The notes under the pieces were generated by a model. It did not search any database. It worked only from the letters and a program-made list of their open reading frames with translations, and was not told the DNA's origin. DNA of 64,000 bases from contig ONCM01000011.1 in assembly GCA_900316305.1 (NCBI GenBank), positions 1,863 through 65,862 on the forward strand, given 5' to 3'. Within the stretch, counting starts at the first letter, position 1; every line of letters begins with the position of its first letter. The DNA comes from an uncultured Bacteroidales bacterium (GTDB lineage: Bacteria > Bacteroidota > Bacteroidia > Bacteroidales > WCHB1-69). Shown here piece after piece: positions 1,821 through 50,846 of this stretch. The translations under genes and the position numbers were made by a program.

Positions 1821-2306
1821 ATGAGCGAACAATATCCCTTAACGATTTTCAAGGACAACCAGCCGGTGACCATTTACGATGAGCAGGAATGGAACCGTTT
1901 CGTGCAAGATTATACCCTGATTCACGCGGCGGGAGGCCTTGTTTCCAACGAAAACGACGAAATCCTGATGATTTTCCGACTCGGATGCTGGGATTTTCCA
2001 AAAGGGAAAGTCGAAGAGGGCGAAGACTGGCCCACGGCGGCCGTCCGCGAGGTGGAAGAGGAAACCGGTCTGCGGAACATTCTCCTGAAAGAAGCCTTCG
2101 TTAACACCTATCACACTTATATCCTGAAAGATACGCCTATCCTGAAAATCACCCACTGGTACTCAATGCAGGCACATTCCCAATCACTCGTCCCCCAGAC
2201 CGAAGAGGATATCGCACAGGCGGTGTGGGTGCCAGTGGCGGAGGTTTCCTCGCGGCTGAAGGAATCCTATTTGTCATTGAGGGAGCTTTGGGGGATGATG
2301 CGATGA
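1821..2306 (+). CDS. NUDIX hydrolase
   Basis: Nudix box GKVEEGEDWPTAAVREVEEETGL. ATG at 1821 (MSEQ); the track start at 1791 is a TTG. Confidence 0.8.
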   Translation: MSEQYPLTIFKDNQPVTIYDEQEWNRFVQDYTLIHAAGGLVSNENDEILMIFRLGCWDFPKGKVEEGEDWPTAAVREVEEETGLRNILLKEAFVNTYHTYILKDTPILKITHWYSMQAHSQSLVPQTEEDIAQAVWVPVAEVSSRLKESYLSLRELWGMMR

Positions 2307-2403
2307 AAGACGATGAAGGACGATGAAAAACGATGAAAAACGATGAAAAACGATGAAAAACGATGAAAAACGATGAAAAATAACGATGAAAAGCGATGAA
2401 AAG
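2301..2403. repeat. Decamer tandem array CGATGAARRA, 10 units
   Basis: Eight in-phase units from 2301 plus two more after a TAA insert. The NUDIX stop TGA (2304-2306) is in unit 1 and the hydrolase ATG (2396) is in the last unit. Confidence 0.95.
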
Positions 2404-3849: not shown

Positions 3850-5454
3850 TCAGAATCCTGCGAATGGCATAAACAGCGGCGGGAGCAACAGCAGAAATCC
3901 CAACACGATGAGCACCAGAAGGAACTTCCAAATGAATTTGAACCACGTGGCGTAAGGGATGCGGGCGACGCCGAGCACACCGATAAGCACGCCTGAAGTG
4001 GGAGTAATCATATTTGTAAATCCGTCGCCGAATTGGAAAGCGAGGACGGTGAGCTGACGCGGAATTTCCATCAAATCAGACCATTCCGCCATCATAGGGA
4101 TGGTAAGCGCAGCTTTGGCAGAACCCGACGGGATAATCAAATTCAACAGATTTTGCATCACGTACATGGTAGCCGTGCTGCCGATTCGGCCGGCATCCTG
4201 CATGCTTTGCGCCACCGCGAAGAGGATGGTGTCGATGATGTGACCCTCTTCCAAAATGATGATGATGCCGCCGGCGAGACCGACGACCAACGCGGCCACT
4301 AGGATGTCCTTACAACCCTCCAAGAAGCTGCGGACCACCTTGTCGAACTTCATCCCGAAGGCGATACCGGCGGAGATACCCATCGCGAAGAAAAGTCCTG
4401 CGATCTCCATCACATACCAGTCGTAGCCCAACACGCCCGTCACGAGGATCAAAATCGTGAAAAGCAGCAGCGTAAGGATCAGATGGTGAACGGATTTCCG
4501 TGTCGCGAAGAAGCCGATGAGGATGAACAATCCCGCCCAAATCGGGAAAAGCATCACGTGACGGCTACCCAAACCAACGGTGATGTCTGTATAGGGCATT
4601 GTAATGGCACAATACAACAAAACAGCTGATATACAGCCATATACTATCCATGCAGAGAGGCCAGATTTCACCATCTCCTGCTGAGAGCCCGTGACCGTCG
4701 TTTTTTCGCGCCAGTAATTGTCGATTTCGTATGTCAGCGACTTTTCGGGATTCTTCTTTACCCAAGCAGCATAAAACAACGTGAAAACGATAGCGATAAT
4801 CGTCAATATAATCCAACAGATGAGTCGGTAGCCGATGCCGGAGAAGGTCGGCAGTCCCGAAAGTCCCTGTGCAATACCGATGGTGAAGGGGTTGAGCATC
4901 GCGCCTGCGAAGCCCACGTGCGCGGCCACATAGCACATCAGCACGCCCGTGATGGAGTCGTAGCCCATGGAAACGGCCAACGGCACGAAGACTACGATAA
5001 AGGCGATGGTCTCCTCGCTCATTCCGAACACCGACCCGAACAAACTGAACATCAGCATAATGGCGATAATCAGCAAGTTGTTGACCCCCACCTTTCGGAA
5101 GAAGGCGTGCTCTTGCATCCGCTGGGTCTTGTCGAGGAAAAGCCAGATGCCGCGGTTGATGGCGTCGGTTTCGTTCATGATCCAGAAGGCCCCGCCAATC
5201 ATCAGAATGAAGACGATGATGCCCGAAGTGCGCTCGAAGCCCTTGAAGAAGGCGGTGAATACCTGCCAGGTCTGCGGTGCGGAATCAACACGATGATACG
5301 AATCGGCAACCACTACATTGCGATCGTGTCCATCCACCGTAACAGTCTGACGCTCAAACTGTCCGGCAGGTACAATCCACGTCAGCACCGCGCACACGGC
5401 GATGATGCTGAACACGATGGTGAAGGTATGGGGGATATTGAATTTGGTACGCAT
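3850..5454 (-). CDS. YfcC/DcuC-like anaerobic C4-dicarboxylate-type membrane transporter family protein
   Basis: 534-aa polytopic membrane protein. The N-terminus FNIPHTFTIVFSIIAVCAVLTWIVPAGQFERQ is typical of YfcC family proteins. Confidence 0.75.
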   Translation of the reverse strand: MRTKFNIPHTFTIVFSIIAVCAVLTWIVPAGQFERQTVTVDGHDRNVVVADSYHRVDSAPQTWQVFTAFFKGFERTSGIIVFILMIGGAFWIMNETDAINRGIWLFLDKTQRMQEHAFFRKVGVNNLLIIAIMLMFSLFGSVFGMSEETIAFIVVFVPLAVSMGYDSITGVLMCYVAAHVGFAGAMLNPFTIGIAQGLSGLPTFSGIGYRLICWIILTIIAIVFTLFYAAWVKKNPEKSLTYEIDNYWREKTTVTGSQQEMVKSGLSAWIVYGCISAVLLYCAITMPYTDITVGLGSRHVMLFPIWAGLFILIGFFATRKSVHHLILTLLLFTILILVTGVLGYDWYVMEIAGLFFAMGISAGIAFGMKFDKVVRSFLEGCKDILVAALVVGLAGGIIIILEEGHIIDTILFAVAQSMQDAGRIGSTATMYVMQNLLNLIIPSGSAKAALTIPMMAEWSDLMEIPRQLTVLAFQFGDGFTNMITPTSGVLIGVLGVARIPYATWFKFIWKFLLVLIVLGFLLLLPPLFMPFAGF

Positions 5455-5463
5455 TCTTTTTAA

Positions 5464-5617
5464 TGGTTATTGGTTATAGATGTTTAGAGTTTAGAGTTTA
5501 GAGTTTAATGTTTAGGAGTTTAGGAGCTTAGGAGTTTAGGAGCTTAGGAGCTTAAGTTCAAAGTTCTATGTCTAAGTTGAAAAGCCAAAAGCTAACAGCA
5601 AACAGCTAATAGCCAAC
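5464..5617. repeat. Composite heptamer arrays (GGTTATT, GTTTAGA, GGAGYTTA, AGCTAAC...)
   Basis: Fills the whole YfcC-ROK intercistronic gap. Confidence 0.9.
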
Positions 5618-7953: not shown

Positions 7954-8035
7954 GCCAACAGCTAACAGCCAATAGCCAAAATCTAGGTCAACAGTCAATG
8001 GTCAACAGTCAATGGTCAATAGTCAAAAGTCAAAA
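7954..8035. repeat. Heptamer arrays (CAGCYAA, CAGTCAA/TGGTCAA) containing the EamA start codon
   Basis: gccaacagctaacagccaatagccaaaa...ggtcaacagtcaatggtcaacagtcaatggtcaatagtcaaaagtcaaa. A reverse-complement-like arm at 7853-7889 sits on the other side of the terminator palindrome. Confidence 0.9.
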
Positions 8036-8925: not shown

Positions 8926-8981
8926 CATTGACCATTGACTGTGTAACCATAAACTGTAAACCTCAATAACCAATAACCATT
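8926..8981. repeat. Composite array TTGACYA - TAAACYR - CAATAAC (short version)
   Basis: cattgaccattgactgtgtaaccataaactgtaaacctcaataaccaataaccatt, ending 6 nt before the ATG at 8988. Confidence 0.9.
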
Positions 8982-8987
8982 ACAAAA

Positions 8988-10166
8988 ATGTTCGTCATCA
9001 TTTTCCTCATCCTGCTCCTCCTCTTTTTCATCACCCCGGACATCTACATCTCGGCTGTCTATCTTCGGCAAGCCCCGATGGTCTGGCGGATTTTGTTTTT
9101 TCTGCCGACCGTCGTCAGCTTTCTTTCCATCGTGGGAGTGTACTATCGGGGATCCTCTAGCGTCTATACCCTCATTTTTCTCTTTATCCTGCTTTGCGTT
9201 GCCATGCCGAAGCTGGTTTTCATGATTTTCTCGCTGCTGTCCAGACTGTTTGGTCATTGGAGTCCAACCGCTGCGACGATTACCAGCATTGTCGGGGTAA
9301 TCGCCGTGTCCGCCGTCTTCTTTGTGGCGTTCTATGGGCTCACGTTCGGATGGAAAAGACTTGAAGTACAACACGTTGACCTTTATTTCGACCATCTGCC
9401 TGCGGCGTATGACGGCTACCGCATCGCGCACCTGAGCGACCTCCATGTGGGTTCCTATCGGAAGAAGACCGGTTTCGTGGAGAAGGTGGTGCAGCGCGTG
9501 AACGAGGAGAGGCCGGATCTGGTGGTCTTCACCGGCGACTTGGTGAACACCGATCCCCACGAGCTGACGCCCTACATCCCCGTTCTGTCGAAACTCACCG
9601 CCCCGGACGGCGTGTTCTCGGTGCTCGGCAACCACGACTACTGTCTATACGGGAAGCCGAAGCGTTGGGCGGACGTGCGCGAAGGTGGCCTGATTGTGGC
9701 GGACATCGAGCGCAAGATGGGTTGGCGGATGCTGATGAACGACGCCCGCATCCTCACCCGCGACACCGACCGCATCGCCATCGTCGGGGTGGAAAACACG
9801 GGCAAGCCACCGTTCCCGCAGATCGGCAACCTGCAAGGTGCGGTAAAGGGCATAACAGACTATGACACCATAAAAAGCAGCGACGACCTTTTCACCATCC
9901 TGCTCACCCACGACCCGTCGCACTGGCGTATGGAGGTGCTGCCGAAGACGCACATCCCACTGACCCTCAGCGGGCACACGCACTCCGCCCAGCTACGCAT
10001 CGGCAACTGGTCGCCATCAAAATGGATGTACGAGGAATGGGACGGATTGTACGAGTCCGGGGACCAGAAACTTTACATCTCGCAAGGCATTGGCGGCACT
10101 TTCCCGTTCCGCTTCGGGGCAAGGCCGAGAATTGTGATTATTACGTTGAGGAGAAATCATGAATGA
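8988..10166 (+). CDS. Membrane-anchored metallophosphoesterase
   Basis: N-terminal TM helices followed by HLSDLHVG, GDLVN, GNHD and GHTH calcineurin-like motifs. Confidence 0.8.
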   Translation: MFVIIFLILLLLFFITPDIYISAVYLRQAPMVWRILFFLPTVVSFLSIVGVYYRGSSSVYTLIFLFILLCVAMPKLVFMIFSLLSRLFGHWSPTAATITSIVGVIAVSAVFFVAFYGLTFGWKRLEVQHVDLYFDHLPAAYDGYRIAHLSDLHVGSYRKKTGFVEKVVQRVNEERPDLVVFTGDLVNTDPHELTPYIPVLSKLTAPDGVFSVLGNHDYCLYGKPKRWADVREGGLIVADIERKMGWRMLMNDARILTRDTDRIAIVGVENTGKPPFPQIGNLQGAVKGITDYDTIKSSDDLFTILLTHDPSHWRMEVLPKTHIPLTLSGHTHSAQLRIGNWSPSKWMYEEWDGLYESGDQKLYISQGIGGTFPFRFGARPRIVIITLRRNHE

Positions 10167-13564: not shown

Positions 13565-13572
13565 CAAAAATA
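13565..13572 (-). promoter_or_regulatory. -7 box TATTTTTG for the cysteine desulfidase-like gene
   Basis: CAAAAATA on the + strand, 21 nt upstream of the ATG at 13544. Confidence 0.45.
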
Positions 13573-13580
13573 CATTTTTT

Positions 13581-13690
13581 AATGGTTATTGGTTATAGGT
13601 TATTGGTTATTGAAGGTTAATGGTTAATGGTCAACAGTCAACAGTCAACAGTCAACAGTCAACAGTCAATGGTCAATGGTCAATGGTCAA
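13581..13690. repeat. Composite array (reverse orientation): GGTTATT - GGTTAAT - GGTCAAC/GGTCAAT
   Basis: Encodes the last PrmC codons (LTIDH*) and runs up to the cysteine-desulfidase promoter. Confidence 0.9.
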
Positions 13691-21935: not shown

Positions 21936-21975
21936 TAATGGTTATTGGTTATTGAAGGGTTATTGGTTATTGAAG
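21936..21975. repeat. GGTTATT array arm directly after the porin-like gene stop
   Basis: taatggttattggttattgaagggttattggttattgaag, complementary to 22160-22192. Confidence 0.85.
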
Positions 21976-22089: not shown

Positions 22090-22192
22090 ACTATAAACCA
22101 TAAACCATAAACTATAAACCATAAACTATAAACCATAAACTGTAAACTGTAAACTGTAAACCTCAATAACCAATAACCAATAACCCATAACC
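22090..22192. repeat. Composite array TAAACYR x about 10 - CAATAAC x3, ending 9 nt before the fumC ATG
   Basis: ctataaaccataaaccataaactataaacc...ctgtaaacctcaataaccaataaccaataacccataacc. Confidence 0.9.
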
Positions 22193-22201
22193 TTTATAAA
22201 A

Positions 22202-23572
22202 ATGGAATATAGAATCGAAAAAGACACATTAGGCGAAATACGCGTCGAGGCCGACAAGCTGTGGGGCGCGCAGACGCAACGGGCGATGGAGAACTTCCAA
22301 ATCGGGAAGAAGCACATCCCCATCGAGATCATCTACGGCATCGCGACGGCCAAGAAGGCGGCGGCCTGCGCCAACTACGACTGCGGCGTGCTGCCCGAGG
22401 ACAAGCGCGACCTGATCGTGCGCGTGGTCGATGAGATCACCAGCGGACAATGGGACGACCAGTTCCCGTTGCACATCTGGCAGACCGGCTCCGGCACACA
22501 GACCAACATGAACGTCAACGAGGTGATCGCCCACCGCGCGCAGCAGCTGCAAGGCGGCCAACTCACCGACTACCCGCTCTTCCTCTCGCCCAACGATGAT
22601 GTCAACAAATCGCAATCCACCAACGACATCTTCCCCACGGGCATGAGGATCGCCACCGCGAAGAGCATCATCACGCGCACGCTGCCCACGCTGGAGCGTA
22701 TGATGGAGACCTACCGCGAGAAGGTCGCTGAATACGCAGACATCAAGAAGATCGGGCGCACGCATTTGATGGACGCCACCCCGCTGACACTCGGCGACGA
22801 ACTCTCCGGCCACCTTTCCCAATTAGAGCACGGCTACGAGGTTATCCAACAGAGTCTCAAACACTTGATGGAACTTCCCATCGGCGGAACGGCCGTCGGC
22901 AACGGCATCAACGCCCCGAAAGGCTACGACAAAATCGCCCTGCAATACATCAACCAATTCACGGGTTTGGAATTCACCAACTGTCCCAACAAATTCGAGG
23001 CGATGGCCACCCACGACTCGCTCTGCGAGATGTCGGGCGCGTTCAAGCGTTTGGCGGTTTCGCTGATGAAGATCGCCAATGACTTCCGCTTGCTTAACTC
23101 CGGTCCGCGCTGCGGCCTGGGCGAGGTGATATTGCCCGCCAACGAGCCCGGCTCCTCCATCATGCCCGGCAAGGTGAACCCCACGCAGTGTGAGGCACTC
23201 TCACAGGTTTGCTGCCAAGTCATCGGCAACGACGTAGCCATCACCACCGGCGCCATGCAGGGCCACCTGCAGCTCAACGTCTTCATGCCGCTCATCGGCC
23301 GCAACCTGCTGCAATCATCGCGCTTATTGGCAGATGTTATCAACTCCTTCAACGATCACTGTCTCAAGGGAATAAAGCCCAACTTGGAGCGCATCTCCAT
23401 GCATCTCCACAACTCGCTGATGCTGGTCACGAAGCTGAACCCGCACATCGGTTACTACAACGCCGCGAAGATCGCGCAACATGCGCACGAAAACGGGCTG
23501 ACGTTGCGAGAATCTGCATTGGAATTGGGATTGGTGTCTGCGGAAGATTTCGACGAGTGGATGCAATTGTAG
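22202..23572 (+). CDS. fumC: Class II fumarate hydratase
   Basis: Signature GSSIMPGKVNPTQCEA; 456 aa. Confidence 0.9.
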   Translation: MEYRIEKDTLGEIRVEADKLWGAQTQRAMENFQIGKKHIPIEIIYGIATAKKAAACANYDCGVLPEDKRDLIVRVVDEITSGQWDDQFPLHIWQTGSGTQTNMNVNEVIAHRAQQLQGGQLTDYPLFLSPNDDVNKSQSTNDIFPTGMRIATAKSIITRTLPTLERMMETYREKVAEYADIKKIGRTHLMDATPLTLGDELSGHLSQLEHGYEVIQQSLKHLMELPIGGTAVGNGINAPKGYDKIALQYINQFTGLEFTNCPNKFEAMATHDSLCEMSGAFKRLAVSLMKIANDFRLLNSGPRCGLGEVILPANEPGSSIMPGKVNPTQCEALSQVCCQVIGNDVAITTGAMQGHLQLNVFMPLIGRNLLQSSRLLADVINSFNDHCLKGIKPNLERISMHLHNSLMLVTKLNPHIGYYNAAKIAQHAHENGLTLRESALELGLVSAEDFDEWMQL

Positions 23573-31212: not shown

Positions 31213-31331
31213 GGTTTAATGTTTATGGTTTAAGGTTTATGGTTTATGGTTTATGGTTTATGGTTTGACGGGGCCTTGGGAAAGACAACCTTAAACTCTC
31301 AACCTTAAACTCTCAACCTTAAACCTTAAAC
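31213..31331. repeat. Two-armed heptamer array inside the ribosomal block (rplW-rplB spacer)
   Basis: A GGTTTAT/GGTTTAA arm (31213-31266) and an AACCTTA/AACTCTC arm (31287-31331). GGTTTAAGGTTT and AAACCTTAAACC are exact complements. Confidence 0.9.
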
Positions 31332-31334
31332 TAA

Positions 31335-34639: not shown

Positions 34640-34656
34640 ATACCTATATTATATAT

Positions 34657-34750
34657 TCATCGTCTTTCATCGTCTTTCATCGTCTTTCATCGTCTTTCAT
34701 CGCTTTTCATCGCTTTTCATCGTCTTTCATCGCTTTTCATCGTCTTTCAT
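34657..34750. repeat. Decamer array CATCGYYTTT x9-10 (reverse complement of the 2301 unit)
   Basis: In-phase units from 34661 to 34750. Lies upstream of the 34639 lipoprotein gene in that gene's orientation. Confidence 0.95.
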
Positions 34751-35510: not shown

Positions 35511-35550
35511 ACCAATAACCTATAACCAATAACCAATAACCTATAACCTA
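35511..35550. repeat. Heptamer array CAATAAC/CTATAAC containing the stop of the OadA-like gene
   Basis: accaataacctataaccaataaccaataacctataaccta. Confidence 0.9.
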
Positions 35551-37329
35551 TTTCACAAACGCAATCACATCGCCTTTGTTGACCTTCTGGCCTTGTTCGG
35601 CGACCGTTTCGAGGATCTGACCGTCGAAGAGGCTTACCACAGGTTCCATGCCGTAGTAGGTGCTCACCATGCAGACGGTGTCGCCCTTCTTCAACGCCGT
35701 GCCGACCGGTTTGGGCATCGACTTCTCGTCACCCACGGCAATCTCCCAAAGGATTTGTCCGCTCACGGGCGCGACCACCGGCTGGGCCTCGGGATACATC
35801 TTTCTGACACGCTCGAAAATAATCTGTTGACGATCTTGCGGGGCAGCGGCAACGCCACCAGCCTGCTTCTTCTGCATGGCGGCCTCCAACTCACGATTGA
35901 AGTTCTGTTTCGCCCTACCCTCTTTATAATCAACATATTGGCGTTCGTGCATAGCTAATTCGAAGAGTTCCTCTTCGTCCTGACCGACATCCCAGCCCTT
36001 TTCTTCCATCATCTTGCGGTACTTAGGCAGCTCGTCGGGATAGTTGTCTTGCGGCACGCCGTCGAAGAACTCGAAGCCTTTTTCCTTGGCCAACTCGATG
36101 ATTTCGGGAGCCAGCGGTCCAGGCAGACGGCCGCACTTGCCGAGAATCATATCCCACTGGTTCTGCTCCATGTAGGTAAAGCGCGGTTTGCCCTCCACCT
36201 CAGCGCGGACGTTCATCAGCGCGATGTTCTTGACATACTGGCTGAACGGGGTCACCAAACCGGGCGTGCCCACCATCGGCCACACGGCAGCCACCTCGTC
36301 GAACAGCTTGACCAGCAGCTGGTCTTCGTTGAGCGTTGGCTGGCCGTTTTTCTCCAATGTCTTGTTGAGATAGCTGTGGATGCCCTTCAGGTCGGCCATC
36401 ATGGAGCCCATCATGCCGCCGGGCAGACCGCAACCGAGCAGTAAGGATGTGGAAATCTTGTTCTTCGGCTCAATGAAGTAGCCGAGGAAGTCGTCCATGA
36501 ACTTTTGGGTGAGCGAACGGGCCTCCATGTAAGCGTTCATATCAATGTCGGCGACCTCGAAACCGTCGTTGCGGAGCATGGCCTGCACGGCAATGACATC
36601 GGGATGAACCATACCCCAGGAAAGCGGTTCCATAGCCACGTCGATGATGTCGGCGCCGTTGCGGCAGACTTCCAGCACGGAAGCCATGGAGAGGCCGGGA
36701 CCCGTATGTCCGTGATACTGAATCACCAAGTGCGGGTACTTCTCCTTGATAGCCTTCACCAACTTGCCGAGGTCCGCAGGACGACCGATGCCGGCCATGT
36801 CCTTCAGACCAATCTCCTTCGCGCCGTACTCCACATATTTATCGACCACGGAGAGATAGTGCTCTAATGTATGGACGGGCGAGTGCGAGATGCTGAGTGC
36901 GGCCTGCGAAATGAGGCCGAACTCATTGGCGTATTTGATGGAGAGTTCCAGATTCCGGTGGTCGTTGAGGCCGCAGAAAGAGCGGACCACATCCACGCCT
37001 TGTGCCTTCTTGACCTTGAACATCAGTCGGCGCACGTCGGCGGGCACAGGGTACATGCGCAGACCATTGAGGGCGCGTTCCAGCATCTGGCACTGGATGC
37101 CGGCAGCCCGCAACGGCTTCGTCCACTCGCGCACGGCGTGGTTGGGGTTCTCGCCGTACATCAGGTTCACCTGCTCGAAGGCACCGCCATTGGTTTCCAC
37201 GCGATCGAAGCAGCCCATGCGCGCAATCACAGGCGCAATTTCGGTCAACTGATCCACGCGCGGCTGATACTTTCCGGACGACTGCCACATGTCACGATAC
37301 ACCAAACAGAATCCGATTCTCTTTTTCAT
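35548..37329 (-). CDS. Oxaloacetate decarboxylase alpha / pyruvate carboxylase subunit B-like carboxyltransferase with a C-terminal biotinyl-fold domain lacking the canonical lysine
   Basis: 593 aa with an HMGL-like TIM barrel (YRDMWQSS, HGHTGPGLS). The C-terminal segment APVSGQIL...GDTVCMVSTYYGMEPVVS...GDVIAFVK aligns to a biotinyl domain, but EAMKM is replaced by STYYGM. Confidence 0.65.
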   Translation of the reverse strand: MKKRIGFCLVYRDMWQSSGKYQPRVDQLTEIAPVIARMGCFDRVETNGGAFEQVNLMYGENPNHAVREWTKPLRAAGIQCQMLERALNGLRMYPVPADVRRLMFKVKKAQGVDVVRSFCGLNDHRNLELSIKYANEFGLISQAALSISHSPVHTLEHYLSVVDKYVEYGAKEIGLKDMAGIGRPADLGKLVKAIKEKYPHLVIQYHGHTGPGLSMASVLEVCRNGADIIDVAMEPLSWGMVHPDVIAVQAMLRNDGFEVADIDMNAYMEARSLTQKFMDDFLGYFIEPKNKISTSLLLGCGLPGGMMGSMMADLKGIHSYLNKTLEKNGQPTLNEDQLLVKLFDEVAAVWPMVGTPGLVTPFSQYVKNIALMNVRAEVEGKPRFTYMEQNQWDMILGKCGRLPGPLAPEIIELAKEKGFEFFDGVPQDNYPDELPKYRKMMEEKGWDVGQDEEELFELAMHERQYVDYKEGRAKQNFNRELEAAMQKKQAGGVAAAPQDRQQIIFERVRKMYPEAQPVVAPVSGQILWEIAVGDEKSMPKPVGTALKKGDTVCMVSTYYGMEPVVSLFDGQILETVAEQGQKVNKGDVIAFVK

Positions 37330-39476: not shown

Positions 39477-41939
39477 ATGACATTCACACGAAAAACCGTA
39501 ACCAAGATTTTATCCACTCTCTTTTTAATACTATTCTGCTGTTTTTCAGCATTTTCACAAAATACCATTCAAGGTCTTCTCCAAGATGAGAACACGGGGA
39601 AGCCGGTACAGTACGCCAACGTGAGTCTGCTGCGGCAAGCGGACAGCGTGCTGGTGGGCTACACCGCCGCCGATGACAAAGGGGCGTTCACCCTGCAGGC
39701 GGTTCCCAACGGCAAATACCGTCTGGTGGTCTTCTTTGTGGGATACGAAAACTACCAGCAGGAACTTCTGGTTGACAAAAACATGGACTTGGGCACCATC
39801 AAGATCAAGCCGGGCACGGCCACCATCGGCGAAGTGGTGGTGAAGGGCGAGCGGCCGCTGTTTGCCGTGGATGGGGAAAAAACCTACTACAACACCGCCG
39901 AAGACCCTACCGTACAGACGGGTACGGCTTCTGATGTACTGCAGAACGCGCCGGGTGTCTCCGTGGATGTAGAGGGCAACGTCACCCTGCGCGGCACCTC
40001 CAGCGTGGAAATCTGGATCAACGACAAGCCCTCGCACATGAACGCCGAGAACCTCAAGATCTACCTCCAGCAGATGCCCGCCAACAGCATCGACCACGTG
40101 GAGGTCATCACCAACCCCTCGGCGCGTTACGGTTCCAAGGCCGACGGCATCATCAACATCGTGACCACCACGAAAGTGATGAAGAACCAATTCGTCAGCT
40201 TCGGTGCCAACGCCTCCATCAAACCGTATGCAAGTCCTTGGATCTCATACGTTTGGAGCAACGAAAAGCTCTCCATCAACCTCTACAGCAACTTCTCTTA
40301 TTCCATGGATCGCTACAACAACATGTCCGACATCTCCATCTATCAGCCCGGACCGGAAGGCCGCGAAATCGTGAGTTTCGAGAAAGACTCCTCCTATTCC
40401 AGGGGCCATAACTTCGGAGGCGGACTCCATTTCAATATGGATTACGAAATCGACAGCATGAACAGCATCTCGTTGTGGAGCGGTTTTTGGCCGAACTTGC
40501 GCAACTTCAACGGCTATTCCGAGACCTATCGCGAAATGTTCATAGACAGTTCTCTTACCCATTATCGAACGTTATCTCCGAGCAGAAGTAACAGCCATTG
40601 GGCTGGTTTTGGGTTCTATTATCTGCATAATTTCGACCAAAACGGGCACAACATCTCCTTGGATGTGAATGGAAGCAGCTGGGGATGGGGAAATGTTGGC
40701 AAAACCGAAAAAGTTTACCTCTCACCGACCGAATATACGCGATTCATGGACGAGAAAAACCGCAGCGGCTCTTTTGATGTGAGCGCGGAATTGACTTACA
40801 ACCGTCCCTATTCCGAAAACGGCGAGATTTCGCTCGGCTATTACGGCGGATACACCCATTCCAACGAATACGATTACTTGGACACGCTGAACAACGGGAT
40901 TTGGGTGAGAGATGAAATGCGAAGCTATAGAAGTCTGGCACCGGAGATTGAGAACCAGGTGTTCTTCACGTTGCAGCACAAATTCGGCAACTTCACCATC
41001 AAGCCGGGCGTGCGCCTGGAGCACACCTACACCAGCATCCTCTACCCCGAAATCGTGCCCGACACCTTCGCCGTACGGCGGAACTTCTTCCACGTGCGCC
41101 CGTCATTGCACCTGTCGTACCGCACCGAATCGATGCACAACTTCCGCCTGAGCTACACCTTCCGCAGCAGCAACCCTGATGCCGAAAATCTCACCCGCTT
41201 TGTCAAATACGAAGAGGAGAGCTTCTACGGCGGCAACCCCGACCTGAACTCCATCCTGACACATTCCGTGGAAGCGGGTTGGCAGAAATACTGGGAGAAG
41301 TTCGGTTCTGTGGGAGTGACGCTCTACTACCGCGCCAAAACCCGGGACATCGACGAAATCACGGTGCCCGCCTACCACGAGATTTACGGCCGTCAGGTTT
41401 CCTTCACCTATCCCGTGAACGTGGGCAAGGCGATGAACACCGGCTTGGAGGTCAACACCATGTACCGTCCGAACGCCATGTTCAACATACGCCTCTACGC
41501 TAACGTCTATCATCGTTACATAGAAACGATGTACGACAACGAATTCTACAAGCAGCAGATGTGGTCTTACAGCTTCAACATGAGCGTATGGGCTAAGCTT
41601 TGGAAACGTCTGGAAATCAACGTGTCCGGCTATTACGGCTCACCTTCGATTTCCCTGTTCAGCAGCACCCACGCCCACTACAGCATCAATGCGGGTCTGC
41701 GCGCCGACTTCTTCGACAAGAAGCTTTCGGTCTATCTGAACGCCAACGACATCTTCAACTGGAACAGCTGGGGATTCGACAACGACAGTCCCTACTACGT
41801 GTCGCACGGCACGTTCAAGTACAATTCCCGTACAGTGGCGTTGGGCTTCACGCTCAGATTCGGAAAGATGGAGCTGGAGAACCAAGCCCGCCAAGGCGCC
41901 GCCAGCGAGAGCAGCGGCAGCGGTCAGGGCGGCCATTGA
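39477..41939 (+). CDS. TonB-dependent-receptor-like outer-membrane beta-barrel protein with CarboxypepD_reg-like N-domain
   Basis: Signal peptide ...AFSQ, carboxypeptidase-regulatory-like fold (GKYRLVVFFVGYE), plug region (DVLQNAPGVSVDVEGNVTLRGTSS). ATG at 39477, 32 nt after a TATTTTTG box. Confidence 0.7.
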   Translation: MTFTRKTVTKILSTLFLILFCCFSAFSQNTIQGLLQDENTGKPVQYANVSLLRQADSVLVGYTAADDKGAFTLQAVPNGKYRLVVFFVGYENYQQELLVDKNMDLGTIKIKPGTATIGEVVVKGERPLFAVDGEKTYYNTAEDPTVQTGTASDVLQNAPGVSVDVEGNVTLRGTSSVEIWINDKPSHMNAENLKIYLQQMPANSIDHVEVITNPSARYGSKADGIINIVTTTKVMKNQFVSFGANASIKPYASPWISYVWSNEKLSINLYSNFSYSMDRYNNMSDISIYQPGPEGREIVSFEKDSSYSRGHNFGGGLHFNMDYEIDSMNSISLWSGFWPNLRNFNGYSETYREMFIDSSLTHYRTLSPSRSNSHWAGFGFYYLHNFDQNGHNISLDVNGSSWGWGNVGKTEKVYLSPTEYTRFMDEKNRSGSFDVSAELTYNRPYSENGEISLGYYGGYTHSNEYDYLDTLNNGIWVRDEMRSYRSLAPEIENQVFFTLQHKFGNFTIKPGVRLEHTYTSILYPEIVPDTFAVRRNFFHVRPSLHLSYRTESMHNFRLSYTFRSSNPDAENLTRFVKYEEESFYGGNPDLNSILTHSVEAGWQKYWEKFGSVGVTLYYRAKTRDIDEITVPAYHEIYGRQVSFTYPVNVGKAMNTGLEVNTMYRPNAMFNIRLYANVYHRYIETMYDNEFYKQQMWSYSFNMSVWAKLWKRLEINVSGYYGSPSISLFSSTHAHYSINAGLRADFFDKKLSVYLNANDIFNWNSWGFDNDSPYYVSHGTFKYNSRTVALGFTLRFGKMELENQARQGAASESSGSGQGGH

Positions 41940-42064
41940 CCATTGACTATTGACTATTGACCATTGACTGCTGACTGTGTAACCATAAACCATAAACTGT
42001 AAACTATAAACTATAAACCTCAATAACCAATAACCAATAACCAATAACCTATAACCTATAACCA
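41933..42064. repeat. Composite array TTGACYA x6 - TAAACYR x6 - CAATAAC/CTATAAC x6 (long version)
   Basis: Starts on the receptor-like gene's stop codon and ends 4 nt before the nspC ATG. Uses the same junction strings (tgactgtgtaaccataaac; taaacctcaataacc) as 8926 and 22090. Confidence 0.95.
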
Positions 42065-42068
42065 AATA

Positions 42069-43223
42069 ATGAACCAATACGACCAATACCCCTCCCCCTG
42101 CTACATCCTCTCCGAAGAGGCACTGTTGGCGAATTTGCAACTGCTGGATCTCGTGCAGAAAGAGGCCGGTGTGAAGATCATCTGCGCTTTGAAGGGCTAC
42201 GCCTTCTGGCCGTCGTTCCCGCTCATCCGCGAGTGGCTTAGCGGCGCGACCGCCAGCTCCGTGAATGAGGCGCGACTCATCGCTGAGGAGATGGGATGCG
42301 AGGCGCACACCTACGCGCCCGTCTATACCGAACAGGACTTCGAACAGTTGCTCATGTTCAGCAGTCACCTGACGTTCAACTCGTTGACGCAGTACGAGCG
42401 GTTCCGTGCACAGGCGGCCGCCTTCCCCAAGAAGGTGAGCCTCGGACTGCGCATCAACCCCGAATATTCGGAGATCGAGACCGACCTCTACAACCCCGCT
42501 GTACCGGGTTCGCGCTTGGGTATCCTGCGCGACGACATGCCCGACACGCTGCCCGAAGGCATTGAGGGTCTGCACTTCCACGTGCTCTGCGAGAACGACA
42601 GCTACGCCCTCGAACGCTGCCTTAAAGCCACGGAGGAGAAGTTCGGCGACCTCATTCGCCAGTGCAAATGGTTCAACATGGGCGGCGGCCACCATATCAC
42701 CCGCGCCGACTACGACATCCCGCACCTCATCGGGCTGCTGCAGGACTTCCGCAACCGCTACCCGAATTTGGAGGAGGTCATCCTCGAACCAGGCGAGGCC
42801 GTGGGCTGGCAGACCGGCGTGCTGACCTCCACCGTGGAGGACATCGTGGAAAACAAAGGCATCAAGATCGCGATGCTCAACGTCTCTTTCGCCTGCCACA
42901 TGCCCGACTGTCTGGAAATGCCCTACAAACCGACGGTGCTTGGTGCCACCGAACCCAACGAAAACAGCAAGCACGTCTATCGTCTGGGCGGCTGCTCCTG
43001 TCTGGCCGGCGACTTCATCGGCATGGGCGACTTCGCATTCCCCGAACCGTTGGAGCTCGGTGACCGCATCGTTTTCGACGACATGATCCACTACACGATG
43101 GTGAAGACCACCTTTTTCAACGGGGTGGCGCATCCCGCCATCGGGGTCATCCACACGGACGGCAATTTCGAGATGTTGGCACAACCCGGGGACTATGCTT
43201 CGTACAAGGCGAAGTTGGGGTAA
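42069..43223 (+). CDS. nspC: Carboxynorspermidine/carboxyspermidine decarboxylase
   Basis: PSPCYILSEEAL...IICALKGYAFW...ASSVNEARL...FNSLTQ; 384 aa. Confidence 0.8.
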   Translation: MNQYDQYPSPCYILSEEALLANLQLLDLVQKEAGVKIICALKGYAFWPSFPLIREWLSGATASSVNEARLIAEEMGCEAHTYAPVYTEQDFEQLLMFSSHLTFNSLTQYERFRAQAAAFPKKVSLGLRINPEYSEIETDLYNPAVPGSRLGILRDDMPDTLPEGIEGLHFHVLCENDSYALERCLKATEEKFGDLIRQCKWFNMGGGHHITRADYDIPHLIGLLQDFRNRYPNLEEVILEPGEAVGWQTGVLTSTVEDIVENKGIKIAMLNVSFACHMPDCLEMPYKPTVLGATEPNENSKHVYRLGGCSCLAGDFIGMGDFAFPEPLELGDRIVFDDMIHYTMVKTTFFNGVAHPAIGVIHTDGNFEMLAQPGDYASYKAKLG

Positions 43224-43708: not shown

Positions 43709-43851
43709 GAGAATTGGAGGATGAAAAAGCGATGAAGGGGCGATGAAAAGCGATGAAGGGGCGATGAAAGGACGATGAAAAAGCGATGAAAAGCGATGAA
43801 GGGGCGATGAAAGGACGATGAAAAAGCGATGAAAAAGCGATGAAGGACGAC
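43685..43851. repeat. GAGGATAA x3, then a decamer array GCGATGAARR x about 13 with a 40-nt super-period
   Basis: Contains the HsdR_N-like gene's stop codon and fills the convergent gap to paralogue A. Confidence 0.9.
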
Positions 43852-49131: not shown

Positions 49132-49190
49132 CCTAGGGCTCGCTCCCGCTCACCCTAGGCTGACATACGTCGGGCCTTCAGCCCTTTTGG
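49132..49190. repeat. REP-like double-hairpin element, copy 2 (inverted relative to copy 1)
   Basis: cctagggctcgctcccgctcaccctaggctgacatacgtcgggccttcagcccttttgg. It aligns to the reverse complement of copy 1 with a few differences. Confidence 0.75.
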
Positions 49191-50780: not shown

Positions 50781-50846
50781 ATTTCATCGTTCTTTCATCG
50801 TTCTTTCATCGTTCATTCATCGTTCATTCATCGCCCTTCATCGTCC
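50781..50846. repeat. Decamer-type array CATCGTTCWTT
   Basis: Lies between the acyl-CoA ligase stop and the cysS promoter region; abuts the stop at 50847. Confidence 0.85.

Follow-up and report, generated by a model that had tools for sequence, protein, structure and literature searches.

Ordered heptamer composites before start codons in a rumen Bacteroidales genome: probable arms of a polar repeat element family linked to PF05635 genes

This work concerns composite arrays of 7-nt tandem repeats in a 64,000-nucleotide stretch of an uncultured Bacteroidales genome (the window; assembly GCA_900316305.1, contig ONCM01000011.1). An initial annotation had described one ordered composite, (TTGACYA)n-(TAAACYR)n-(CAATAAC)n, before nspC, fumC, a phosphoesterase gene and a cysteine desulfidase gene, and had interpreted it as a possible unstructured leader for translation initiation without a Shine-Dalgarno (SD) sequence. 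Our results suggest that the composite is probably the A/C-rich arm of a family of polar heptamer-repeat elements, of the type of the short tandemly repeated repetitive (STRR) sequences and of the arms of intervening sequences (IVS), which pervades this rumen Bacteroidales genus. A complete element would carry a G/T-rich array on its 5' side and a complementary A/C-rich array on its 3' side, bracketing a small PF05635 gene with its own promoter, whose Avd-like product ('23S rRNA intervening-sequence protein') would be a small four-helix bundle. Gene-less two-armed copies and, above all, solo arms would tile the intergenic spacers. The modules of the composite would then be the layers of one arm, with CAATAAC outermost, TAAACYR or TTAACCW further in and TTGACYR innermost.

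The four loci of the initial annotation all exist where it had placed them, and its names for the four downstream genes are borne out by their identities: Orn_DAP_Arg_deC (nspC-like), fumarase C, a Metallophos phosphoesterase and an SDH_alpha-type (cysteine desulfidase-like) protein. In what follows, TTGACYR is module 1, TAAACYR module 2, TTAACCN or TTAACCW module 2b, and CAATAAC-type repeats module 3. The loci are composed as follows:

41936-42062 (+): full composite of the nspC-like locus, TTGACYR x5, TAAACYR x5, [CY]WATAAC x6 (spans of the regular-expression modules)
41936..41970 (+): module 1 of the nspC-like locus, TTGACYR x5, the array extending from about 41933 to 41976
41986..42020 (+): module 2 of the nspC-like locus, TAAACYR x5, led in by the transitional units CTGACTG-TGTAACC
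42021..42068 (+): module 3 of the nspC-like locus, CAATAAC x4 and CTATAAC x2 with the tail caaata, followed by the ATG at 42069
8928-8977 (+), to 8987 with the tail CATTACAAAA: miniature composite, TTGACYR x2, TAAACYR x2, CAATAAC x2
22094-22191 (+), to 22201 with the tail ctttataaaa: fumC arm, TAAACYR x10, CAATAAC x4
21939..21972 (-): G/T-rich arm on the left side of the fumC spacer, made of CAATAAC blocks in reverse complement (GGTTATTG) and beginning 3 nt downstream of the Porin_10 stop
13585-13690 (-), 13580..13690 with CATTA: reverse-strand composite, TTGACYR x9, TTAACCW x2, CAATAAC x4, CATTA
13565..13572 (-): TAttTTTG -7 promoter box preceding the SDH_alpha-type gene, 12 nt from where the CAATAAC block ends

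All three modules, together with both junction strings, are present at just two of these four loci. At the nspC-like locus, the TGA stop (41937-41939) of the upstream OMP_b-brl_3/Plug gene lies inside the first TTGACYR repeat, and the last repeat lies 6 nt upstream of the ATG. The miniature composite is placed between the stop of an EamA gene and the Metallophos ATG at 8988, which is preceded by cattacaaaa. The fumC arm, which adjoins the ATG at 22202, has two modules only and is the right arm of a two-armed element without a gene. The reverse-strand composite contains the stop of a PrmC-like gene (13673-13675) and ends 12 nt before the -7 box, not at the ATG of the SDH_alpha-type gene (13544). 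The CAATAAC end is indeed close to the ATG at the three forward loci and to a promoter at the fourth, as had been proposed. In contrast, the view that the loci differ in copy number alone does not hold, as fumC lacks TTGACYR and the 13.6-kb locus has TTAACCW standing in for TAAACYR. Neither are the junction strings common to all four: TGACTGTGTAACCATAAAC is found at only 2 loci genome-wide and TAAACCTCAATAACC at 5, 3 of them inside the window, and the reverse-strand locus carries neither. The observation is thus real, although overstated in detail, and can be regarded as partly confirmed. On the upstream side, the genes encode an outer-membrane beta-barrel protein, a porin, an EamA transporter and a PrmC-like methyltransferase, whose functions are unrelated to those of the downstream genes.

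The window belongs to a 3.28-Mb rumen Bacteroidales metagenome-assembled genome (MAG) of 99 contigs, 97% complete, whose relatives are also uncultured rumen Bacteroidales MAGs; its genes were called with a simple coding-potential open reading frame (ORF) caller made for this analysis. Tandem Repeats Finder (TRF) returned 925 period-7 rows, corresponding to 902 non-redundant arrays in 142 canonical unit families, the top families counting 59-91 arrays each. With 902 arrays across the genome, the four loci are one case of a pervasive system. A strict detector found 264 arrays of period 7 vs 2-31 for periods 5, 6 and 8-11. Array nucleotides fall mostly in predicted intergenic regions (24,429/29,777, 82%), and 546 of the 2059 intergenic regions (about 27%) contain an array, with shares of 28% among co-directional, 25% among convergent and 19% among divergent spacers. 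Of 24 further genomes of the genus, 15 contain the CAATAAC family; it is absent from 16 other genera of the order.

The order of the modules is fixed, and the pattern as a whole lies far beyond chance. Regular-expression runs of at least two units numbered 85 for TTGACYR, 76 for TAAACYR, 24 for TTAACCN and 100 for [CT][ATC]ATAAC in this genome. Adjacent unlike modules stand about 38 times in the direction from module 1, 2 or 2b to module 3, vs 2 times reversed. Among the 37 composites with at least two module types, the order 2-3 occurs 17 times, 1-3 six times, 2b-3 and 1-2b-3 three times each, 1-2-3 twice and the reversed 3-2 twice; the two 1-2-3 composites are the only ones in the genome with all three modules, and both lie within the window. 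A 2-nt-offset junction, AACC-TC-AATAACC, recurs at no fewer than 14 non-homologous loci.

The CAATAAC block is the outer terminus of the arm and behaves as a discrete unit. Exactly four units are present in 50 of the 100 copies, flanked 5' by (A)GCTT or CCT and 3' by CATTA and then A-rich sequence. Blocks facing a start outnumber those facing a stop (74 vs 23), at a median distance to the start of 10.5 nt; the 3' end lies within 20 nt of a sense ATG in 49 copies and at 21-60 nt in 12 more, mostly via degenerate units. Another 12 copies stand beside a TAnnTTTG box, which begins at +12 in nine and at +11 in two of them. As the promoter logo of this genome, AAAAAwtTTG-TAyyTTTGC, includes an A-tract, the block ends where the promoter's own A-tract begins. 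Finally, 21 copies adjoin the stop of a reverse-strand gene, usually with TTA within CATTA. The same three surroundings are found for the composites: of the 37, 24 have a sense ATG within 30 nt in front of their CAATAAC end, 5 point to a -7 box and 8 to the stop of a reverse-strand gene. The orientation noted in the initial annotation is not set by the start codon as such, the same polarity being found at stops.

Indeed, the orientation follows a wider rule. Beside starts, A/C-rich families are sense-oriented (CAATAAC 37:4, CTATAAC 11:0, AAACCTT 9:0, AAACTTG 10:0), and beside stops it is the G/T-rich families that are so (AGTTAGC 49:5, AGTTAGT 52:3, AATTATG 30:7, AATGTAG 29:4). Within 10 nt of a gene, the strand with C>G reads toward that gene at stops (272:64) and at starts (120:38). 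Considering the halves of each spacer, G-skewed arrays lie on the left (259:68) and C-skewed arrays on the right (233:69; Fisher p = 1.6e-47), a placement that holds in all four gene-orientation classes; by unit family, 27 obey this positional rule and 2 violate it, and in multi-array spacers the G-then-C order prevails 63:1. No G/C skew was seen in non-array intergenic DNA. Since the polarity is the same at stops and in all orientation classes, orientation toward the start codon is a special case of a chirality that is blind to gene direction. CAATAAC prefers starts and promoters by about 3.5:1, and the units found beside starts are the G-free ones.

Three candidate causes of this chirality were rejected. 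The supply of stop codons is one, as families with equal stops on both strands are still oriented (AAACCTT 9:0, AAAAGCC 8:0). The generic composition of leaders is another, non-array leaders being without C>G skew over 60 nt. Replication-strand bias is the third, because CAATAAC blocks switch back and forth between the strands within 40 kb of the window, in keeping with the adjacent gene. A reason related to Rho and an origin linked to PF05635 are the ideas left standing.

The link with PF05635 is physical. This genome contains five PF05635 genes and two fragments, missed by the ORF caller. Four of the five genes are bracketed by inverted arrays, two by (AGTTAGC)n...(GCTAACT)n, one by (AATGTAG)(AATTATG)...(ATTCTAC) and one by inverted CGATGAA 10-11-mers; the remaining gene is without arms, and one of the fragments is bracketed by (AATGTAC)...(GTACATT). 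These arm families are the commonest array families of the genome. PF05635 genes occur in all 31 sampled genomes of the genus, with 1-18 each. At 29 loci with full flanks, arrays stand on both sides in 24 and the arms are complementary (at most 1 mismatch per unit) in 19; 17 cassettes are G-skewed upstream and C-skewed downstream vs 2 with the opposite arrangement. Two cassettes of sister species are made of the modules found in the window. One (L149) reads TAATG-(GTTATKG)n-(GTTTATT)n, PF05635 gene, (xAACCxx)n-CTT-(CAATAAC)3-CCATAAC-CATTA, then a promoter, and the other (L151) reads (GTTATWG)n, PF05635 gene, (TAAACAA)3-TAAGCTT-(CAATAAC-type)x4-CATTAAAA. The fixed module order is therefore the layering of an arm, with CAATAAC outermost. 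Two-armed pairs of the families of modules 1 to 3 number 11 in this genome, all with the G arm on the left, so that more than 90% of the arrays of these modules are solo arms. CAATAAC blocks terminating in TAATG...CATTA mark the outside of two-armed elements, which invites a comparison with miniature inverted-repeat transposable elements (MITEs).

Several individual loci illustrate these cassettes. On contig C58, two PF05635 genes (C58:56809-57120 and C58:58414-58713) are separated by 1.6 kb; each has a TAttTTTG promoter of its own and (AGTTAGC)n...(GCTAACT)n arms adjoining the ends of neighbour genes. A minimal two-armed element without a gene, TAATG-(GTTATKG)3-loop-(CAATAAC-type)3-CATTA, is found at C97:20330-20430, flanked by two outward-facing -7 promoters that themselves form a perfect inverted repeat (ggcaaaaatacaataaa / tttattgtatttttgcc). 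Tandem arrays of 10-11-nt units of the CGATGAAAAA type stand beside gene ends in the window (2301-2402, 34656-34750, 43720-43846 and 50782-50844), and the same family makes the inverted arms of the PF05635 cassette in contig C36; the arm system is thus not restricted to 7-nt units. The involvement of a reverse transcriptase or of a diversity-generating retroelement (DGR) was rejected, as this 97%-complete genome gave no PF00078 match.

Taken together, these data would be explained by arms whose CAATAAC terminus stops at the edge of a host function, be it the A-rich initiation region at a start codon, a -7 promoter with its A-tract or a convergent gene's stop codon, and whose layers each grow and shrink by slippage. 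The orientation toward the ATG would have two components. The first would be the universal chirality, in which a G-skewed arm precedes a C-skewed arm on either strand, and the second a filter by which only G-free, A-rich units persist beside starts, giving an unstructured, AUG-poor and stop-rich intercistronic leader suited to SD-less initiation. The anatomy of the arms, their polarity, their polymorphism between strains and the connection with PF05635 rest on direct observation; the way in which the elements spread, the transcription of the spacers and any influence on translation are inferred.

Nevertheless, several observations weigh against this explanation. The four loci are without a PF05635 gene: three (nspC, 8.9-kb and 13.6-kb) are solo arms and one is two-armed but gene-less, and we infer the descent of solo arms from complete cassettes from their shared repeat families and termini. 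Neither a target-site duplication nor a transposase was found, inspection of four ends having shown no consistent duplication. The TTGACCA family runs counter to the positional rule (4:15). As the arrays of a family are copies of one another, array counts overstate the number of independent events, and the family-level ratio of 27:2 is the safer figure. The ORF caller, which missed the small PF05635 genes, may also misplace some starts. Finally, left and right arrays of the same spacer do not in general pair better than G-arm/C-arm combinations taken at random (-13.06 vs -12.93 kcal/mol); a general hairpin model was rejected on this ground and holds only for the 11 two-armed pairs.

The expandability of the parts is visible between strains. 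A metagenome scan for a junction plus block retrieved 19 rumen contigs from about 14 loci, of which five contigs are conspecific versions of four loci of this genome, with flanks 98-99% identical and junctions conserved. The unit counts are:

TTGACNN, 8.9-kb locus: 2 in the window's genome, 5 in a metagenome contig (L112)
NNATAAC, 8.9-kb locus: 2 in the window's genome, 4 in a metagenome contig (L112)
TAAACNN, fumC: 10 in the window's genome, 5 and 8 in metagenome contigs
TAAACNN, C77: 14 in the window's genome, 6 and 8 in metagenome contigs
TAAACNN, C37: 8 in the window's genome, 7 in a metagenome contig

At the 8.9-kb composite, the conspecific contig thus has 5, 2 and 4 units of the successive modules vs 2+2+2 in the window's genome. 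As the unit number of each module differs between near-identical strains, the parts are expandable, and the idea of one modular element with expandable parts is supported by the fixed module order, the conserved CAATAAC ends and these differences. At nspC, the sole other contig on record is identical, and a metagenome scan with exact flanks found no match. In sister species, the ATG of nspC is adjoined by other units (GAAACTT, CATCATT, AATTCTT, TAAACTT, TTGAGAC/CTGAAAC) or by no array. CTGAATC and AACTGAC arrays were found directly upstream of the nspC ATG in L080 (Proteiniphilum sp. UBA4084) and L083 (Bacteroidales AS09scLD_223), at about 2944-2997; most genomes as distant as these have no array there. 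The gene upstream of nspC varies among species of the genus (L002-L012), synteny breaking at the repeat-filled spacer, which suggests that the arrays may act as rearrangement breakpoints.

The arms adjacent to starts have properties expected of leaders. Their G content is 11.5% vs 17% in leaders without arrays, and the predicted minimum free energy (MFE) of the -45..+30 region is -4.3 vs -8.8 kcal/mol (p = 3.5e-29), falling to -9.95 kcal/mol once the array leader is reverse-complemented; the median predicted MFE of the array-carrying leaders is 0. An ATG is present in 18% of start-adjacent arrays in sense vs 37% in antisense, and 70% have stops in all three frames. The spacers between module 3 and an ATG are co-directional in 47 of 49 cases, with a TAnnTTTG box in 7 of the 47 and none in 40; for comparison, 78% of the starts of divergent genes and 8% of spacers after shuffling have the box. 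As so few contain a box, these arms most likely belong to transcribed intercistronic spacers. An array-internal promoter was rejected, since the units cannot hold TAnnTTTG and most of these spacers are without a box. SD-less initiation regions of Bacteroidetes are A-rich, AUG-poor and weakly structured (PMC6847099, PMC3155529), and the start-adjacent arms agree with them, although this evidence is correlative.

From these properties, one could propose a dedicated translation element, a start-positioned, G-poor and A/C-rich landing pad for SD-less ribosomes whose copy number tunes output. Such an element would account for the 49 blocks within 20 nt of a sense ATG at a median of 10.5 nt, for the 24 of 37 composites ending within 30 nt of one, for the far weaker, orientation-dependent folding, for the fewer AUGs and the stops in three frames, and for the fit with the published initiation regions (PMC6847099, PMC3155529). 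Heptamer arrays of other units before nspC in several sister species and the slightly higher coding-bias score of array-bearing genes (0.31 vs 0.28) also point in this direction. However, 12 copies adjoin promoters, from which they would not be transcribed, and 21 adjoin reverse-gene stops; the polarity is just as marked beside stops and between convergent genes; PF05635 genes are bracketed by these same arms; an array is missing at several nspC orthologues; and array-free leaders of this genome already show the A-rich signature at -14..-11 and -3. We consider this explanation unlikely. The unstructured leader of the initial annotation finds support in the G-poor, weakly folded start-adjacent copies, but the same blocks also stand beside promoters and reverse-gene stops. 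A leader role is thus plausible for a subset of the arms, and would neither define the element nor set its orientation; as a whole, that interpretation is partly supported.

A speculative extension of the arm explanation, which we regard as quite unlikely, is that some process connected with the bracketed PF05635 protein, which is Avd-like and nucleic-acid-binding, generates, copies or maintains the arms. The rule that each strand ends 3' in an A/C-rich array may then be the footprint of this process, for example of repeat addition or of strand-specific 3'-end binding. If true, a single mechanism would underlie the unexplained excess of 7-nt repeats across bacterial phyla.

The arrays could also be neutral, microsatellite-like DNA, with heptamer slippage products born in place and trimmed by selection at gene and promoter borders. 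Among long simple-sequence repeats, heptanucleotides form the most frequent class in many bacteria (Mrazek 2007 as summarised in PMC4679880), and the 142 different canonical units, the fast copy-number change between strains, the turnover of units at orthologous sites and the arrays ending exactly at functional boundaries all agree with such an origin. Nevertheless, independent birth leaves unexplained the 100 same-ended CAATAAC blocks with a modal number of 4 units, the same offset junction at 14 loci or more, the chirality of 27 of 29 families and the systematic bracketing of PF05635 genes, and the G/C skew is absent from non-array intergenic DNA. We find this origin very unlikely.

Equally unlikely is a role as Rho-dependent transcription insulators, in which any transcript entering a gene, sense or antisense, would first carry a C-rich, G-poor and unstructured tract similar to a Rho utilization (rut) site; in two-armed copies, the G arm coming first would let the C arm pair on emergence. 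This is the only rival offering a reason for a chirality symmetric with respect to gene orientation. The C>G strand reads into genes at starts and stops, the arms have 40-130 nt with near-zero predicted structure, and Rho is encoded at C52:46977. However, the argument is purely compositional, several abundant units (TAACTGC, TAAACTA) are without YC dinucleotides, and rut sites placed in operon spacers that lack a promoter would subject 40 or more downstream genes to polarity.

Hairpins processed by RNase III, in the style of rRNA intervening sequences or of the hmw 5' untranslated region (5'-UTR) of H. influenzae, separating cistrons or setting mRNA stability, have precedents (PMC4990558, PMC12721329) and would suit the 11 complementary two-armed pairs (among them the fumC spacer, 31226-31333 and C97:20353-20405) and most PF05635 cassettes, but are highly improbable, as less than 10% of the arrays of modules 1 to 3 have a partner arm, the nspC, 8.9-kb and 13.6-kb composites are solo arms and arms sharing a spacer pair no better than random ones.

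Comparison with known systems places the arms close to several of them. TAACTGA heptamer direct repeats are intergenic in marine Beggiatoaceae, Cyanobacteria and five Bacteroidetes, with one unit in 2-6 copies, other heptamers sharing spacers in Gramella and Aequorivita (MacGregor 2015, PMC4679880). As in our genome, these are tandem intergenic 7-nt units, mostly forward and a few nt from the start codon, with stops on the forward strand, a translatable reverse strand and occasional reversed copies just after a stop codon. In contrast, the units here are CAATAAC, TAAACYR and TTGACYR among 142, in ordered layers and with a genome-wide G-then-C chirality, and the nearest unit, TAACTGC/TAACTAC, is mainly stop-proximal in antisense (49:5 and 52:3); no link to PF05635 is reported for TAACTGA (PMC4679880). 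The STRR heptamers of cyanobacteria and heptanucleotide long simple-sequence repeats (PMC4679880, PMC4692102) share the dispersed intergenic arrays, the several families, the variable copy number and the dominant period of 7. As far as we found, our arrays differ from STRR as published in that their families are position-specific, their arms are layered and have conserved termini, and their chirality is strict. The unit GTCAACA of this genome is a rotation of STRR3 CAACAGT. Heptanucleotide long simple-sequence repeats were reportedly surveyed by Mrazek in 2007.

PF05635 itself is known from 23S rRNA intervening sequences with an S23p/PF05635 ORF, as in Coxiella burnetii (PMC4990558), and from rRNA insertions of the Candidate Phyla Radiation (CPR; PMC11270868), and it resembles the DGR protein Avd (PMC10053308). 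These elements, regarded as selfish, likewise have a small four-helix-bundle ORF within inverted arms able to form a long stem. However, the cassettes described here lie between protein-coding genes instead of in rRNA, their arms consist of heptamers in tandem, solo arms without a gene make up most copies and no reverse transcriptase was found in the genome. The phase-variable ATCTTTC repeat in the 5'-UTR of H. influenzae hmw1/hmw2 (PMC12721329) is also a heptamer array just upstream of a start codon with a strain-variable unit number. Nevertheless, hmw is a single-locus contingency switch that needs pairing with a G-rich partner and RNase III, whereas the arrays here occupy hundreds of housekeeping junctions, the nspC, 8.9-kb and 13.6-kb arms have no partner, and 40 of the 47 co-directional spacers between module 3 and an ATG have no -7 box. 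Pneumococcal BOX elements (boxA-boxB(n)-boxC) and the bacterial interspersed mosaic elements (BIMEs) of E. coli are structured intergenic mosaics with modules of 30-60 bp. They share with our composites a fixed module order, a variable number of internal modules and a location near gene ends; the modules here, however, are tandem 7-mers instead of 30-60-bp stem-loops, and BOX or BIME modules are not known to enclose a PF05635 gene. As far as we found, layered arms, the chirality rule and the bracketing of PF05635 genes between ordinary genes are described in none of the closest published systems (PMC4679880, STRR, PMC4990558, PMC12721329).

In this rumen genus, roughly one gene junction in four is made of this repeat system. 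Ever since STRR and simple-sequence repeats were surveyed, the accumulation of 7-nt repeats in bacteria has awaited an explanation, and the question is made testable here by a chirality independent of gene direction, by layered arms with a defined outer terminus and by the physical link to PF05635. Furthermore, array spacers are mostly operon-internal, supply stop codons and sit on start codons, which affects gene calling and assembly of MAGs.

Three further features of the system are present in the window:

5466..5507 (-): module 2 to module 3 composite, adjoining the ATG (5454) of the minus-strand gene 3850-5454
35513..35547 (+): antisense-class block of CAATAAC/CTATAAC x5, whose 3' end adjoins the stop of the gene 35548-37329 on the reverse strand
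31226..31333 (no strand assigned): two-armed heptamer element, a GGTTTAW arm followed by a CWTAAAC arm, in a co-directional spacer

In addition, a (GTCAAYA)x7 array at 7985-8033 overlaps the predicted EamA start at 8012; this ATG lies inside a repeat unit, so start calls beside arrays are uncertain. Between stop-side and start-side arrays, GC-rich palindromes are dispersed (GTAGAGACG-N8-10-CGTCTCTAC; AGGGGCGAATAATTATTCGCCCCT; GGGCGTATGCRATACGCCC) in many spacers outside the window, for example at C23:33900, C30:148490 and C61:32260; being without a T-tract, they resemble repetitive extragenic palindromic (REP) sequences and not terminators. A known RNA family was rejected for the arrays, where an Rfam scan gave no match; at 49132-49185 (+) of the window, the scan matched the Acido-Lenti-1 small RNA (RF01687) with 40.2 bits vs a gathering score of 37.

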